64,000 nucleotides of DNA. It comes from Dehalococcoidia bacterium. Lineage in GTDB: Bacteria; Chloroflexota; Dehalococcoidia; SM23-28-2; RBG-16-64-32. Shown here piece after piece: positions 54,503-62,982 of the stretch. A program made the translations under genes and the position numbers. Where the stretch lies: NCBI GenBank assembly GCA_034408935.1, contig DAOUMV010000014.1:32564-96563 (forward strand). Direction: 5' to 3'. A model generated the notes under the pieces. That model saw only the letters and a program-made list of their open reading frames with translations. It did no database searches and was not told where the DNA came from. Positions within the stretch are counted from its first letter, which is position 1, and the number at the start of each line of letters is the position of its first letter.

Positions 54503-55312
54503 ATGAGTAGTAATGACACGCGGGAAGAGGCGTACCGCCTGCCTCTCTCCTACATCCTCCGCTTCATCGTGGCTGTGCTCCTGGGAAGGAAGCGCGACCT
54601 GGGGCGCGATGCCAGGGGCACACTAATGACGGCCAGGCCCAAACCCAAGGTCTTGGACGACCACCACGTCCCTTCGGAGGGGCCGTTCGTGTTCGTGGCC
54701 AACCACTACGAACGGCCCGGCCTGAAGGTCTGGTGGGGCGGCATGCTGGCCACCACCGCCATCTACGAGCGGCGGCAGAGCCAGCGCACGCTGCGCTGGC
54801 TCATGACCAGCGAATGGTACGGTTTCCGCCTTGGCGGGGTCGTCCCGGTGCCGACATGGCTCGTGCGCTGGCTGTTCCGCCGCATCGCCAACGTCTACGG
54901 CCTCGTCATCGTACCCCGCTCTCCCGAGCAGCGGGTGGGCCGCGCCGCCGCCATGCGCGCCATCATGGAGGTGACGAAGAGGCAGGGCGACCCGATAGGC
55001 CTGTACCCGGAGGGCATGGGTCGCGAGGTTCTGATCGAAGCGATGCCCGGCACCGGCCTGTTCCTCAACTCACTCAGCAGGCGGGGCATCCCCCTCCTGC
55101 CCTGCGGCATCTATGAGGAGGAGAGCATCCTCACCGCCCGCTTTGGCCCACCGTTCTTCGTCGATCTGCCCGACACCGCCGCCAAGGAGGAGCGAGACCG
55201 CGTGGCGCGGGAGCAGGTGATGGCGCGTATCGGCCGTCTGCTGCCCCGGCCCATGTGGGGCCCCTACATCCTGGCCGTCGAGGAGCTGCTGGCCCGCAGA
55301 CCGGTGGCCTAG
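54503..55312 (+). CDS. putative lysophospholipid acyltransferase-family protein
   Basis: Start MSSNDTREEAYRLPLSYILRF...FVFVANHYERPG...LYPEGMGRE resembles the NHx4D / xPEGx acyltransferase blocks, though with H-Y-E-R spacing. Confidence 0.5.
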   Translation: MSSNDTREEAYRLPLSYILRFIVAVLLGRKRDLGRDARGTLMTARPKPKVLDDHHVPSEGPFVFVANHYERPGLKVWWGGMLATTAIYERRQSQRTLRWLMTSEWYGFRLGGVVPVPTWLVRWLFRRIANVYGLVIVPRSPEQRVGRAAAMRAIMEVTKRQGDPIGLYPEGMGREVLIEAMPGTGLFLNSLSRRGIPLLPCGIYEEESILTARFGPPFFVDLPDTAAKEERDRVAREQVMARIGRLLPRPMWGPYILAVEELLARRPVA

Positions 55313-56313
55313 CCGGCCTCCTCCGGCACCGCCTCAGTCGCTTCGGGCTCGCCCGGCGCCTCGGTCGCCTCAGCCTCCCCCGGTGCCTCGGTCGCCTCGG
55401 CCTCCGGGATCACCGTTGCCCCTTCCTGTGGGGTTACCTCCGCCTCCTCGGGCCCGAATTGGATTGCGACAACGTCGCCATGCTGGGGGATGTAGTCGCT
55501 CCAGTCGTTCATCTTCACGCCGTTGACCGACACCTGGAGCATCGCCTCAGAGCCATCGTCGCACGTGTCTCCGTTCCTATACTCCTTGCGGCTGCCGGGC
55601 ATGCGCATCTCCGTCTGCGTCAGCTTGCCGCCCCCGTACTCGAACCACTTCACCAGGCGAGCGCCCTTGCCTTCCTCGGACGCTATCCGAGGTTGGAGGT
55701 AGATGACGCCGTCGCCGTTGGTGGTGACACCGCCCACCCAGCCGTCGAAAGGGGCCTGGGTCTGGCCGCAGATCTCAACGGAGTAGGTGGCCTGCCAGCT
55801 GTCCCCGATGTGGGGTGGGGGGCCCTCGCCCCACGGCTCGATGAACAGAACCGCCAGGATGCCAAAGACCACGGCGATGATAAACGCCACCGGGACCCAG
55901 GGCGGCAGGTGCAGGCTCCGGACACGCCGCCAGGTTTGCCCCAACGTTTGCCTGGGCATCGGCTGCTCACGATAGGTTCGGGTCCGGCCCCGGCGCCAGA
56001 AACTGAGGGGCGAGACGTCCGCAGGCGTTGCGGCGGTCGGCCGCTCTTCGCGGCCTTGCTCTCGGCGCTCGCGCGCCTTCTCCTCCTTGCGGCGGCCGCG
56101 GCGCCCAAAGCGAAACCGCGGCCGCGAGGGCAGCACCCCCGGCGCCTCGCTCTCCTCCGCTACCTCGGGCTGCCCCTCCTCCTGCCTCTTCTCTGGAACC
56201 CCGGCTGGGAGATCTCCGCCGCCACGGCCACGGCGACGGCCCCGTCTCCTCCTTCTCCGTCCTTCTGCCAAACTAGACTCTCCTTTTGTCTCCCTCAACC
56301 AGCAGGCCGACAT
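55309..56313 (-). CDS. hypothetical membrane-anchored protein with Arg/Gly-rich N-terminus and C-terminal EATEAPGE tandem repeats
   Basis: 334-aa ORF. One TM helix (VAFIIAVVFGILAVLFI). C-terminal three copies of ATEAPGE(A/P)E encoded by 24-nt DNA repeats (55330-55400). Start uncertain. Confidence 0.4.
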   Translation of the reverse strand: MSACWLRETKGESSLAEGRRRRRRGRRRGRGGGDLPAGVPEKRQEEGQPEVAEESEAPGVLPSRPRFRFGRRGRRKEEKARERREQGREERPTAATPADVSPLSFWRRGRTRTYREQPMPRQTLGQTWRRVRSLHLPPWVPVAFIIAVVFGILAVLFIEPWGEGPPPHIGDSWQATYSVEICGQTQAPFDGWVGGVTTNGDGVIYLQPRIASEEGKGARLVKWFEYGGGKLTQTEMRMPGSRKEYRNGDTCDDGSEAMLQVSVNGVKMNDWSDYIPQHGDVVAIQFGPEEAEVTPQEGATVIPEAEATEAPGEAEATEAPGEPEATEAVPEEAG

Positions 56314-56719: not shown

Positions 56720-57154
56720 ATGGGAGTCAGTGAGAGCATCGACCGCCTGTTTATGACGCTCATCGAACGTCAGGAGTCCACCTTCGACGCCATCAGGTCG
56801 GCCAACGAGCGCTACCACCGGTTCACCCGCAGCATCCTCGAAGCTTCCCGCCAGGGCGCCCGCGAATGGACGAATGTGGCCCGAGGCTGGGCGCAGCGCC
56901 CCACCGACATCGTCGGGCTATATGAGTCTATCTCCGAGGCCGTGGCCAACGACCAGGCCCGGCAGCTCGCCCTGTGGCAGGAAGCCCTGGAGGACCTGGC
57001 GGACTCCCAGCGGGACGGCCGCGAGGTGATGCGTGGGGGCATCGGCCGGATGCGCGAGGCGGTGGAGGCCGTTCAGGAAAACGTCCCCTCGTTCCTGCGC
57101 GAGCGCGTCTCCGCTCTCCGTCGGGACGAGAAGGAGCCCGTCGCCAAGACCTAG
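56720..57154 (+). CDS. hypothetical protein (phasin-like helical protein)
   Basis: 144 aa, all-helical composition. SD AAGGAG 8 nt upstream. Confidence 0.45.
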   Translation: MGVSESIDRLFMTLIERQESTFDAIRSANERYHRFTRSILEASRQGAREWTNVARGWAQRPTDIVGLYESISEAVANDQARQLALWQEALEDLADSQRDGREVMRGGIGRMREAVEAVQENVPSFLRERVSALRRDEKEPVAKT

Positions 57155-57432
57155 CGACAGACCCCGCAACGGCGCCATGTAGCAGGTTGACGTGCGCCGC
57201 CGCTGTGTTCTCCCAGTCCCCGTTCTGACTGCAGCGGGCCGTGTAGCCTAGCTGGAGCTTCCTGCCCGCCTCCAACTCCCTGAGGGTGAACTGCAGCCCG
57301 AAGTCGCTGATGTCCTCGTGCTGGTGACCATCCACGGAGCCGGTCGCCCAGCGGCTCTCATGGGCAGCGCGGCCGCCGTGGTCGCTGGAGAGTCGAATTG
57401 CTGTCACCAGTACAGACATTATTGTGAAATAC

Positions 57433-57475
57433 TTGTCAAAGCCCTTGACAGGTCACTGCAGGTGTGATAATTAGT
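57433..57475 (+). promoter_or_regulatory. AT-rich promoter island (TTGTCA/TTGACA boxes; extended -10 TGTGATAAT/TAATTA) ~380 nt upstream of the TasA-like gene
   Basis: cttgtcaaagcccttgacaggtcactgcaggtgtgataattag, the only AT-rich stretch in >5 kb. May also serve a divergent transcript. Confidence 0.35.
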
Positions 57476-57850
57476 AGTCTGCTTACGTTATGTCTTGAGC
57501 CGCCGACCGAGACGAGGTGGTGGGGGATCACTCGGTCTCGGAGGTGGAGTGTCGGCGACGGCTTGTCGCCGATTTTCATTTTGCAGGAGGGGGCGCTGAC
57601 CAGACCCTAGCCGAGAGAAATACAGCCCCGCACGGCCGAAACCATGCGGGGCAGGCAGCAGGACGCCGCGTTACCAGAGCCCTCTGCCGTCTCCGATTCT
57701 AATACAGGGTCGGCTCCACGGCAACGGGGCCGGCCCTGTTGGTTTTAGGCCGTGCGGGGCACCACCCGACAGGAGGTGATGCCTATTGCACGGGCGATTC
57801 GGTTTGTAGCGACGAATGCGGCGAACGATTAGCACAAAGGGAGATGGAGA

Positions 57851-58810
57851 ATGAAGCGAAGGATACTCATGAGCCTGCTGGTGATCGGCACCGTGGCGGC
57901 TGTGATCGCCGGGGCGACCACAGCCTACTTTAGCGATACCGAGAGCGCCACCGGCACACTTTCCGCTGGCACAATCGACATCAGGGTAGATGGCCAGAAT
58001 CCCTGGCAAGGCACGTTCCAAATGGCCGATCTTAAGCCCAGTGAGACTGGCCTAATAAACTTCACCATCCGGAACCTCAGTGCCAACCCGGTGGTCGTGT
58101 GGAAGCACATCGGCAACGTTCAGACCAGCGGCGGGGAGCATCCAGAGTCTGAATTTGCCGAGGACCCCAACGACACGATCAACCACATCCACACGGTCAC
58201 AAATTATGACCTGAAGGTGGACAGCACAGTCATTTTCGCCGACGAAGATGGCCTGTCGGTTAACGACATCCGAAGCATGTGGATGCCTCTGGGCACGATA
58301 CCGCCCGGTGGCACTCTCGATGTGGAGCAGAGCTACCACATGCGCGGGGAGGACACCGGCAACTGGGCCCAGGGCGATGTCATGACCTTCGACATCGACC
58401 TGTACGCTGAGCAGGAACTCGGTACTGGACCAGGGCAGCTGTCGCGCAAGCTCTTCCTGGATGACAAGACGGGGGAGCCTGACTGGCACTTCATCGCAAA
58501 CGGCACTTGGGGGCTTCTCAAGTGGGATGCGGCCGGCAACTACAGCTTTGCTGCCCAGGGCCTTACGCCGGGTACCGGCTACACGCTGATTCACTACCCT
58601 GAACCGCAGACAACTTGGCCGTGGCCTGTGAACGCCATTGCCAGCGGGACAAGCGACGCTGGTGGCAAGCTTTCCTTGTCTGGCACGCTGCCGGCGGTGT
58701 CGTCCGGCAAGATTTGGCTCGTTCTCACGAACGACATTGTCGGTGTCTCACTTAGCGGTTGGACCCCGGCTCAGTACCTGTTCGAGTCCCATCTGGTCAA
58801 CATCCCGTAG
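57851..58810 (+). CDS. TasA/camelysin (CalY, peptidase M73)-family protein with SipW-cognate signal peptide
   Basis: MKRRILMSLLVIGTVAAVIAGATTAYFSDTESATGTLSAGTIDI. The AYFSDTE + TGT pattern is the SipW-cognate class signal. SD AAAGGGAGATGGAG. Followed by a SipW gene. Confidence 0.7.
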   Translation: MKRRILMSLLVIGTVAAVIAGATTAYFSDTESATGTLSAGTIDIRVDGQNPWQGTFQMADLKPSETGLINFTIRNLSANPVVVWKHIGNVQTSGGEHPESEFAEDPNDTINHIHTVTNYDLKVDSTVIFADEDGLSVNDIRSMWMPLGTIPPGGTLDVEQSYHMRGEDTGNWAQGDVMTFDIDLYAEQELGTGPGQLSRKLFLDDKTGEPDWHFIANGTWGLLKWDAAGNYSFAAQGLTPGTGYTLIHYPEPQTTWPWPVNAIASGTSDAGGKLSLSGTLPAVSSGKIWLVLTNDIVGVSLSGWTPAQYLFESHLVNIP

Positions 58811-58910
58811 CCCTGGGCGAGGAGGCGACCCAGCAGAAGCAATAGTGGTGTGCGTGGTGGGGGTTCGCTCTGCCTCCGCCACGCGCATCGCCCGCGGTGT
58901 TATCGATGGC

Positions 58911-59471
58911 ATGTCTACTTCCGCGTTCAAACGGCTGATTCGCGTACTGGGGCTGCTCGTCAACGTAGCTGTGACGCTGGCGTTGATCGGCGTCATCCTG
59001 TTCTTTGTGCTGCCCCGCCTTCTCCACTGGGACCTACAGGTGGTCCTCAGCGGCAGTATGGAGCCCGCCCTGCCCGTGGGCTCGGCCATCTTGGTCCGTC
59101 CAGTAGACCCCCAAGCGGTGTCTGCGGGCGATATCATCACGTATCGCCAGCAAGGTTCTCCCAGCTTCGTCACTCACCGCGTGGTGGAGGTCGAGCGCCA
59201 GGGCCCGGCCCTTGGCTTCCGCACCAAGGGAGACGCCAACGAGGATCCCGATAGCTACACGGTGCCAGCCGAGAACGTGGAGGGTCGGGTCTGGGTGGAC
59301 ATTCCATACCTGGGCTATGTGGCCCAGCACGTGCGCGGCTCCTGGGGCTTCCTGCTGTTGGTCGGGGTGCCTGGGGCTATCATCATCGCCGGTGAGGTGT
59401 GGAACATCGTCAGCGTGCTCAGGAAAGGGAAGTCCGGGCAGCTGGACACCCGTCCGGGGAGGGACTCGTGA
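58911..59471 (+). CDS. sipW: signal peptidase I, SipW type (S26B, archaeal/ER-type)
   Basis: N-terminal TM then VVLSGSMEPALPVGSAILV...HRVVEV...KGDAN; S26B SipW pattern with Ser (SGSMEP) and downstream His. Confidence 0.75.
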   Translation: MSTSAFKRLIRVLGLLVNVAVTLALIGVILFFVLPRLLHWDLQVVLSGSMEPALPVGSAILVRPVDPQAVSAGDIITYRQQGSPSFVTHRVVEVERQGPALGFRTKGDANEDPDSYTVPAENVEGRVWVDIPYLGYVAQHVRGSWGFLLLVGVPGAIIIAGEVWNIVSVLRKGKSGQLDTRPGRDS

Positions 59472-60525
59472 GGCCGCACGCCTTGCTCGTGGGGGGTCTC
59501 TTGCTGCTGGTCGCTCTTGCCGTCCTCGTCCTGCCTCGCATCGGCGGCATCTACGGCGTATTCTCGGACACGGAAACGGCAGAGGTCTCCCTCAGGGTGG
59601 CTAGCTCCTTTCCGCCAGCAGAGTGCGGCGGGATGGAGTTCGACAACACGATAACGGGAACGAGCGGGGGCGATAAACTCACAGGCACCAGCGGAAGCGA
59701 CCTCATCTTCGGCCTCGGCGGCAACGACAGGATCAGAGGCCTCGCCGGCGACGACTGCATCGTCGGCGGTGATGGCGACGACAAGATATATGGCGGCAAG
59801 GGCGACGATACCATCGACGGCGGCCCCGGCAGAGACAAGATTTACGGCGGCCTCGGTGACGATACCATCGTTGGCGGCCCCGGCGACGACAAGATATATG
59901 GCGGCCACGGCGACGATGTCATCGACGGCGGGCCCGGCAGCGACAAGTGCAGGGGCGGCTTCGGTGCCGACACGATCACCAACTGTGAGCGGCCCTCTTG
60001 CCCTTGGGGCCTCAGGGCCCAGTTCCACCACTCCGTGCCCACGGTGGACCTGACCTGGCAGGCCGTAGCCGATTCCCTCTACTACAACATATATCGTGGA
60101 ACTGCCAGCGGCGGGCCCTACGAAGGGATCGGCAGCTCCCCCAGACCGTCATATCAGGACGTCAACATAGTCGAAGGGGCAACCTACTACTACGTGGCCA
60201 CGGCTGTGGACGGCGATGAGTTCGAGAGCGGGCCAAGCAACGAGGCGCAAGTAGTGACCCTGGTGGCCGCGCCTTGGGCGGAGCCGACGCCGGCTCCTGA
60301 GCCCACAGGAACACCAGAGCCTATGCCAACGCCAACGCCAGAACCTGCGCCGAACGCTGAGCCCACCGCGACGCCGGTACCAACGCCAGCTCCGGAGCCA
60401 ACTCCAACGCCAACACCGACGCCGAGCCCGGAGCCCACCCCCACGCCGGACGGAACCGCGACGCCACAGTCCACACCTACGCCCGCGGCAGAGCCGACCA
60501 CTACGCCTGAGCCTACACCCGTGCC

Positions 60526-60529
<4 letters not shown>
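59468..60529 (+). CDS. secreted protein with SipW-cognate signal peptide, RTX-like Ca-binding GG.G.D repeats, FN3 domain and PT-rich tail
   Basis: GTG start overlapping the sipW stop (GTGA). IYGVFSDTETAEVSL SipW-class signal. Repeats GGDGDDKIYGGKGDDTIDGGPGRD. DLTWQAVADSLYYNIYRG...YYYVATAVD (FN3-like). (PTPEP)n tail. Confidence 0.7.

Positions 60530-62982
<2,453 letters not shown>

Follow-up and report, generated by a model that had tools for sequence, protein, structure and literature searches.

What serves as the accessory subunit of a TasA-type fibre outside Bacillus is the question raised by a three-gene locus in a 64,000-nucleotide (nt) stretch of DNA (contig DAOUMV010000014.1, positions 32,564 to 96,563 of the forward strand), hereafter called the window, which has a GC content of ∼66%. 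Three co-directional open reading frames (ORFs), p1, p2, and p3, were found in the window DNA at the coordinates given for them in the initial annotation; they encode a TasA/camelysin-family protein, a SipW-like signal peptidase, and a secreted protein carrying an RTX β-roll, an FN3 domain, and a Pro/Thr-rich (PT) tail, respectively. To our knowledge, the start, capping, and cell attachment of TasA-type fibres are known for Bacillus TapA only, and TapA is not conserved. The interpretation put forward here, with confidence slightly better than even, is that the locus encodes a TasA-type donor-strand fibre system in which p2 is a dedicated peptidase and p3 a second p2 substrate, acting as the donor-strand initiator, cap, or anchor of the fibre. 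The features concerned are listed below with their window coordinates, strand, size in amino acids (aa) or residues, and the evidence used, AF2 denoting the AlphaFold2 model.

57851..58810, plus strand: p1, TasA/camelysin-family major subunit, 319 aa (matches to PF12389, TIGR04088, and a TasA profile).
57851..57925, plus strand: p1 signal peptide, residues 1-25, with predicted cleavage between A25 and Y26 and F27 at P2′ (profile alignment to TasA).
57926..57982, plus strand: predicted donor-strand segment of p1, YFSDTESATGTLSAGTIDI (homology to the TasA N-terminal donor strand; PMC9674648).
58911..59471, plus strand: p2, SipW-like S26B signal peptidase I of the endoplasmic reticulum (ER)/archaeal type, 186 aa (TIGR02228, SEC11 alignment).
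59468..60529, plus strand: p3, accessory secreted protein, 353 aa (sequence; the gene caller agrees on the start).
59468..59557, plus strand: p3 signal peptide, residues 1-30, with predicted cleavage between G30 and V31 and F32 at P2′ (AF2 helix 4-26; FSDTET in register with p1 and TasA).
59558..59617, plus strand: mature N-terminal segment of p3, VFSDTETAEVSLRVASSFPP, proposed TapA-like donor strand (likeness to TapA, conservation in the related locus L131).
59624..59989, plus strand: Cys-flanked RTX β-roll module of p3, C53 to E174 (PF00353, 7usl, AF2).
60008..60265, plus strand: FN3 domain of p3, approximately residues 181-266 (3mpc, AF2).
60266..60529, plus strand: disordered Pro/Thr-rich tail of p3, residues 267-353 (87 residues), and stop codon (sequence, AF2).

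The family membership of p1 was established with profile models. It matched PF12389 (Peptidase_M73) with 39.1 bits (cut-off 22.5, E 9e-10), a family found in all of its close homologues, and the SipW-cognate signal model TIGR04088 with 31.6 bits (cut-off 19) at the motif TTA/YFSDTESATGTLSAGTIDI, where the slash, here and below, marks the predicted cleavage point. Against NF046066, the equivalog model of Bacillus TasA, the score was 15.4 bits, below the cut-off of 450. Judged by these scores, p1 is a member of the TasA superfamily and not an orthologue of Bacillus TasA. A profile built from 27 homologues of p1 showed weak but specific matches to the TasA fibre 8aur (E 0.0057) and the TasA monomer 5of1 (E 0.014). 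In the profile alignment, F27-S-D of p1 was placed on F29-N-D of TasA, the mature N-terminus in 8aur, and GNWAQGD..F of p1 on NKYQGN..F of TasA, thus matching the GN(W/Y)QG...F motif. As F27-S-D aligns with the mature N-terminus of TasA, the putative cleavage site of p1 was positioned between A25 and Y26. A Phe at P2′ is a hallmark of the SipW-cleaved TasA site and has been tied to poor cleavage by LepB and to dedicated processing by SipW (PMC10269814). The start of p1 at 57851 (MKRR...) agrees with the N-termini of its homologues, the NCBI start being 57869.

The AF2 model of p1 (mean predicted local distance difference test score, pLDDT, 79; predicted template-modelling score 0.73) was all-β with two β domains, a TasA-like domain at approximately residues 26-192 followed by an Ig-like C-terminal domain at approximately 195-319, residues 16-41 being of low confidence in the monomer (pLDDT <50). 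Among the 22 invariant columns of the p1 family alignment, four (F27, D29, E31, and G40) lie within the first 15 residues of the mature protein, which is in agreement with the report that the most conserved residues of the TasA family sit in the protomer interface (PMC10151520). The characterised relatives of p1, namely TasA, AbpA, TafE, and AbpX, form donor-strand filaments (PMC9674648, PMC9245690, PMC12337348), and from this relationship and the conservation of its N-terminal strand, p1 is predicted to polymerise likewise by donor-strand exchange into a fibre. The wording "amyloid-like" in the initial annotation is dated in this respect, as TasA fibres are now described as donor-strand-exchange polymers (PMC9674648, PMC10151520). 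The additional Ig-like domain at the C-terminus (window 58433-58807, pLDDT ∼90+) is present in p1 and in homologues from the candidate phyla radiation (CPR), Chloroflexota, and archaea, and is absent from Bacillus TasA; Foldseek matched this C-terminal stretch to Ig folds of the neocarzinostatin type.

The second gene product, p2, matched TIGR02228 (archaeal/ER-type signal peptidase I) with 116.8 bits (cut-off 51.85), and its score against TIGR02227 (bacterial S26A) was 26.2 bits, below the cut-off of 47. Hence, the earlier assignment of the 58911 product to S26B rather than to the S26A LepB type is borne out, as is that of p1 to the M73/TasA family. The score of p2 against NF046067, the equivalog model of Bacillus SipW, was 114.3 bits (cut-off 190, not reached), and p2 is, by sequence comparison, an enzyme of the SipW type and not an orthologue of Bacillus SipW. 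The sole real matches of p2 among solved structures were human SEC11C and SEC11A (E 1.6e-9), and the alignment with SEC11 matched SGSMEP (S49), THRV (H89), and KGDAN (D108), corresponding to a Ser-His(-Asp) and not a Ser-Lys arrangement; S49, H89, and D108 are thus the predicted catalytic residues. The length of 186 aa is the NCBI call, and an alternative GTG start at 58845, used in the Logan call, would give 208 aa.

The core operon, a TasA homologue with a SipW-type peptidase, is ordinary and covered by standard annotation models and published surveys. The new part is the accessory, a family with FN3 and PT tail, a TapA-like N-terminus, and an RTX passenger, which was not described in the literature searched. 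The GTG start of p3 at 59468 lies within a GTGA that overlaps the sipW stop codon (59469-59471), with a Shine-Dalgarno-like GGAGG 5 nt upstream, in accordance with the initial annotation, which had also correctly described the protein as a combination of RTX repeats, FN3, and PT-rich tail. Eleven RTX nonapeptides (GGxGxDxUx) were counted by eye; PF00353 matched in seven stretches with a total of 152.3 bits, and the RTX module matched that of CyaA (7usl) with E 1.2e-47. The β-roll was modelled by AF2 at residues 60-171 with pLDDT of at least 95, and the module is framed by the conserved cysteines C53, C97, C161, and C173. The FN3 domain matched the "Fn3-like protein" of PDB 3mpc (E 3.3e-11) and 5g56 (E 6e-10) and was modelled as a β-sandwich with seven strands at residues 183-263 (pLDDT >93); the Pfam fn3 model gave no match to p3 at E<=0.1. 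The PT tail was predicted to be devoid of secondary structure (pLDDT 50-70). Neither a C-terminal transmembrane helix nor an LPXTG motif nor a C-terminus of the type I secretion system (T1SS) type was found in the p3 sequence or its AF2 model. The exact p3 sequence was absent from the protein collection searched.

The RTX block contains a 54-nt tandem array at 59746-59947 (Tandem Repeats Finder, period 54, 3.7 copies). Tandem DNA repeats of p3 were observed both in the RTX region (59746-59977; periods 54 and 108 nt) and in the PT tail (60325-60449; periods 36 and 12 nt), and the number of 18-aa RTX double units varies among p3 homologues; the sequences suggest that the RTX repeats expand and contract. 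A reading of p3 as an RTX toxin or protease of the T1SS type was considered and rejected because the signal is N-terminal, the C-terminus is rich in Pro and Thr, and the score against the RTX_toxin model NF033943, 72 bits, is far below the cut-off of 1000.

The N-terminus of p3 is the part on which its proposed function depends. When the 64 kb window was searched in six frames with a regular expression for a hydrophobic stretch followed by an FSDTE-type motif, two occurrences only were obtained, p1 and p3; of further signals of this class, for which the initial annotation had suggested a genome-wide search, none was encountered in the window. A hidden Markov model (HMM) of the signal, built from 104 N-termini of major subunits of related loci, gave 51 bits for p1 and 10-12 bits for p3 (E 0.004-0.018), placing p3 second-best of the 587 window ORFs but weakly. 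Accessory genes located after sipW in related loci scored 8-36 bits with the same model as against 57-68 for major subunits, and the 12 bits of p3 fall within the accessory range. The cleavage of p3 between G30 and V31, and its processing by p2, are predicted from the AF2 signal helix and the register of the FSDTET motif. Residues 29-46, between the signal helix and the β-roll, were unstructured in the AF2 monomer (pLDDT <50), as expected for a free N-terminal extension. Residues 44-62 of TapA, its mature N-terminus, read AFHDIETFDVSLQTCKDFQ (checked against the sequence of PDB 6QAY), and in a short, post hoc comparison the predicted mature N-terminus of p3, VFSDTETAEVSLRVASSFP (residues 31-49), had eight of its 19 residues in common with it, namely F, D, E, T, V, S, L, and F. 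p3 has "ET.(D/E)VSL" in common with TapA and not the "TFxAGTxD" of major subunits. TapA is known to speed TasA filament formation by donation of its N-terminus and sits at the start of the filament, and it cannot accept a strand as its own Ig fold is complete (PMC10151520).

The genomic association of p3 with the peptidase was evaluated across related loci, which are denoted by L numbers (individual homologous proteins by P numbers). Of the 64 related loci in which sipW and the TasA homologue share a strand, 39 carry a signal-bearing gene other than the major subunit directly after or overlapping sipW; sipW-coupled accessory genes with a signal are therefore the rule and not special to the window locus. 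A large size and a TasA-like domain at the N-terminus, together with LTD and laminin-G lectin domains, are seen in many of these accessories, which resemble the tip or adhesin subunits that have been proposed in work on Tafi and AbpX loci (PMC12337348; 10.64898/2026.01.04.697558). Within the p3 family itself, an S26B peptidase gene was found directly 5′ in every locus with readable upstream DNA, namely the window (L001), L002, L082, L084 (with DUF5305 in between), L085, L086, L087 (TasA-SipW-p3), L131-133, and L135-136. Most proteins retrieved when metagenomes were scanned with the p3 alignment were FN3 proteins unrelated to the family, L085-L087 being the only true members obtained in this way.

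Comparison within the family showed which parts of p3 are retained. L131 is the closest relative, with a p1 of 70% identity and a very similar sipW, and its third gene overlaps the sipW stop codon through an ATGA at the same place as the GTGA of the window. This third gene shares the N-terminal segment with p3 (VYG/VFSDGETAHVSV), its start reading ...LGAVYG/VFSDGETAHVSVAAGSVEPP where that of the window reads ...IGGIYG/VFSDTETAEVSLRVASSFPP, and keeps the FN3 domain and PT tail, with a second FN3 domain in the position where the window has RTX. L002 has another domain instead of RTX, and its N-terminus, SAFFADTATASLSFTAG, passes TIGR04088 at 20.7 bits. Distant members (P0132/L135) consist of the N-terminal segment, FN3, and PT tail only. 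FN3 is the best conserved part of the family, and PT tails are found in all members. As both L131 and L002 replace the RTX block and keep the N-terminal segment, the block is, on the aligned sequences, an exchangeable passenger, and the family is defined by the N-terminal segment, FN3, and PT stalk. The suggestion in the initial annotation that an RTX/FN3 partner takes the place of TapA hence remains plausible, supported by sipW-p3 synteny and the TapA-like N-terminus, with the amendment that RTX is not the conserved part of p3.

Three divergent arrangements were also observed. At L084:86-3373, a p3-family protein of 566 aa with two RTX+FN3+PT units follows an S24/S26 peptidase (332 aa) and a gene for DUF5305, reported as a peptidase accessory in Tafi and AbpX loci (PMC12337348; 10.64898/2026.01.04.697558). 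L135:837-2636 (also L136) appears as a minimal divergent system, encoding in order a secreted protein of 148 aa whose mature N-terminus, AFA/AFQNFASQGLGAGDTDVD, is TasA-like, an S26B peptidase of 180 aa, and an FN3+PT protein without RTX. At L134:1-4726, the TasA-TasA2-SipW cluster (p1 homologue P0008, 59% identical) adjoins phage-like genes (capsid, portal), and no p3-type gene follows its sipW.

The following sequence of events is proposed. p1 would be exported by Sec and cut by p2 between A25 and Y26, and the new N-terminus (YFSDTES...GTIDI) would act, in the manner of Bacillus TasA, as the donor strand that enters the following subunit. p2 would be a dedicated Ser-His peptidase of the ER/archaeal type for sites with an aromatic P2′ residue, which are poorly cut by LepB-type enzymes. 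p3, translationally coupled to p2, would be its second substrate, cut between G30 and V31, and its free TapA-like N-terminal strand (VFSDTETAEVSL...) would be donated to a terminal p1 subunit. Since p3 has no TasA-fold acceptor domain, it could donate a strand and could not receive one. As initiator, cap, or anchor, it would occupy an end of the p1 fibre, displaying a Ca2+-dependent β-roll and FN3 on a long PT-rich stalk. A broader and decidedly tentative proposal, which we consider possible rather than probable, is that p3 founds an undescribed donor-strand-only accessory family for TasA-type fibres (signal peptide, TapA-like strand, swappable module, FN3, and PT stalk), invariably encoded right behind the dedicated S26B peptidase, and that, together with RTX acceptors of CPR/DPANN loci, it belongs to a widespread modular system of two-ended capping across bacteria and archaea. 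Under this proposal, the swappable module of the present locus is a disulfide-capped RTX β-roll, and Ca2+ would be required for the fibre to be initiated, capped, or attached.

Several observations weigh against a fibre-bound p3. Its N-terminus scored 7.9 bits against TIGR04088 (cut-off 19), with model positions 19-29 (FSDTETA) alone being aligned; the statement in the initial annotation that p3 has the same signal class as p1 is accordingly withdrawn, as p3 keeps the core FSDTET motif only. The TapA/YqxM model TIGR04087 gave no match to p3. Owing to this and to the brief, after-the-fact nature of the N-terminal comparison, the likeness to TapA is treated as an analogy in mechanism and not as family membership, and p3 may work like TapA. 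The N-termini of distant p3 homologues (P0121, P0126, P0137, P0132, and L086) are devoid of FSDTE, and therefore a donor strand, if present, shows little sequence conservation. No motif for anchoring to the cell wall or membrane was recognised in p3, which leaves the "anchor" variant of its role without direct support. For p1, a Foldseek search of the model against the PDB did not retrieve TasA, the best relevant match being a self-complemented FimA pilin.

These points give room to other explanations. p3 could be an independent secreted or surface calcium-binding adhesin that is only a client of the peptidase and stays outside the p1 fibre, its N-terminal motif serving recognition (P1′-P6′). 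The absence of the downstream "TFxAGTxD" of the TasA donor strand next to the retained FSDTET core would agree with such a client, as would the RTX and FN3 modules typical of stand-alone adhesins; moreover, distant homologues without the motif still adjoin the peptidase, which fits a peptidase-substrate link better than a fibre-partner link. However, the segment after the cleavage point (AEVSLRV...FPP) is kept in L131 and resembles both TapA and the small accessories of L003 and L016 (FSDTETSAGNTLxVxxxFP), and with ∼20 unstructured residues before a Pro-rich linker, it exceeds the need of a peptidase site. On balance, the adhesin explanation is regarded as rather unlikely. It is improbable, in our estimate, that the p3 helix remains uncleaved or is cut by a housekeeping peptidase, leaving a membrane-tethered surface protein whose place after sipW reflects operon organisation only. 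The atypical c-region (PRIGGIYG, having Arg in position -7 and Gly in position -1) and the sub-threshold TIGR04088 score would be explained by it, but the stop/start overlap with sipW and the strict synteny are kept across divergent p3 loci, the YG/VFSD junction is kept in L131, and Ile at -3, Gly at -1, and Phe at P2′ are in keeping with peptidase sites of the ER type and with that of TasA (PMC10269814). A camelysin-like surface metalloprotease encoded by p1, with the operon as a protease-secretion module, is brought to mind by the Pfam family name Peptidase_M73 and by sources that call homologues "M73 family metallopeptidase". It was discarded as highly improbable because the p1 sequence contains neither HExxH nor another zinc-binding motif; the concentration of invariant residues in the N-terminal strand, as in the TasA protomer interface (PMC10151520), and the filaments formed by the characterised relatives cited above likewise speak against a protease. 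The preferred interpretation is still that of p3 as a donor-strand accessory of a p1 fibre.

The host is probably a member of the Chloroflexota with a high GC content. The identical p1 sequence is present on a 190 kb NCBI contig and in a Logan assembly of SRR14802572, and the nearest relatives, on which the Chloroflexota assignment is based, are an Anaerolineae metagenome-assembled genome (MAG; L002, 58% identity) and proteins labelled "Chloroflexi bacterium". Two-domain homologues of p1, 320-390 aa long, are numerous among Patescibacteria/CPR, Chloroflexota, and several lineages of archaea and, where named, are called CalY/TasA family or SipW-dependent-signal proteins; the p1-type family together with sipW is widespread across CPR, Chloroflexota, and archaeal MAGs. 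The non-Firmicute setting noted in the initial annotation is thereby supported, but it is not novel, since TasA homologues of Chloroflexota and Patescibacteria are already included in a published PF12389 survey (PMC9245690). Nothing relevant was retrieved from the literature searched on SipW-dependent signals or TIGR04088 outside Bacillus, or with the TapA peptide string.

The operon is preceded by a non-coding leader of ∼700 nt (window 57155-57850), containing TTGACA at 57445-57450 with GATAAT 15 nt downstream and two strong terminator-like hairpins, one at 57551-57573 followed by a T-run and one at 57704-57739 with 14 pairs and a T-run. Rfam searches for a riboswitch or leader RNA 5′ of p1 gave nothing credible, either over the whole window at the gathering threshold or over 57150-57900 at E<=5, and the leader was not conserved with that of L131, the best match being 21 nt (E 0.07). 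At the other end, the last 4 nt of p3, which include its stop codon (60527-60529), are shared with the 3′ end of a minus-strand gene of 818 aa (60526-62982) that converges on it and reads by eye as a ClpB-type chaperone; between the two genes, no terminator-like hairpin was found beyond a weak 5-pair stem at 60544-60557. A minus-strand ORF of 334 aa (55309-56313) has an Arg/Glu-rich N-terminus, one transmembrane helix, an extracellular domain, and EATEAPG repeats at its C-terminus; the contig gene table lists its counterpart with no Pfam family, and no relation to the fibre operon is evident. No T1SS families were listed in that table for the operon's neighbouring genes, a screen for them not having been extended to the remainder of the window.

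Bacteria and archaea are increasingly seen to share TasA-type donor-strand fibres as a biofilm scaffold, and in Chloroflexota and uncultured lineages related to them, the sipW-coupled p3 family could correspond functionally to TapA. It offers a testable handle on fibre initiation and attachment and on their possible control by Ca2+. The comparison with the Bacillus tapA-sipW-tasA operon supports such a correspondence in so far as the accessory in both cases has an N-terminus resembling that of the major subunit and lacks an acceptor TasA fold (PMC10151520). The two systems differ in gene order (p1-sipW-p3 in the window), in the C-terminal Ig-like domain that p1 has in addition to the fold of Bacillus TasA, in the accessory, which has an RTX β-roll, FN3, and PT tail in p3 and a V-set Ig domain in TapA, and in the host, which for the window is of high GC and probably belongs to the Chloroflexota.

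ABP (AbpA/AbpB), Tafi (TafA/E-TafD-TafG-TafC/F), and AbpX loci combine a conserved signal peptidase I and a donor-strand major subunit with variable accessories proposed as tip, minor subunit, or anchor, and in each of them the peptidase diverges more slowly than the structural accessories (PMC9245690, PMC12337348, 10.64898/2026.01.04.697558). For Tafi and AbpX loci, variable tip and anchor accessories with donor strands have been reported (PMC12337348; 10.64898/2026.01.04.697558). In contrast to those loci, the window locus lacks DUF5305, a regulator, and a membrane-anchor gene (DUF5305 being present in one p3-family locus, L084), secretion would proceed via Sec and not Tat, and none of the accessories in the literature consulted has an RTX β-roll or the FN3+PT architecture of p3. 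No description of an association of RTX with TasA-SipW loci was found in the literature searched; the AbpX preprint discusses calcium-dependent TasA-like fibres, RTX appearing there as an analogy only (10.64898/2026.01.04.697558). With classical RTX proteins of Gram-negative bacteria, such as CyaA, HlyA, and the serralysins, p3 shares the GGxGxDxUx nonapeptides and the Ca2+-binding β-roll, but it differs from them by an N-terminal Sec-type signal, a PT tail at its end, and the absence of a toxin or protease architecture.

The RTX module of p3 has its counterpart in TasA-SipW loci of CPR/DPANN (L003, L011, L016, L062, and L066), where the same Cys-framed module (EC..F..G..DLIFG..DC...C..CE) is encoded just 3′ of sipW. 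In these loci (L003:7699-9313, L016:7773-9312, L011:4800-6353, L066:1737-3442, and L062:8137-10342), two genes follow sipW. The first encodes a small donor-only protein whose N-terminus, of the form FSDTETSAGNTLxVxxxFP, resembles that of p3. The second encodes a TasA-like domain without the FSDTE strand, fused to the Cys-framed RTX module, a protein that, by its sequence, would be acceptor-only. In L062, the donor-only protein was observed as a fusion to the C-terminus of SipW itself (364 aa). The donor-only protein and the RTX module are thus found in separate genes in CPR/DPANN and in one polypeptide in the window, with FN3 and a PT tail in addition, and on these sequence features p3 looks like a condensation of the CPR/DPANN parts, in which a donor-type N-terminus has been joined to the RTX module.

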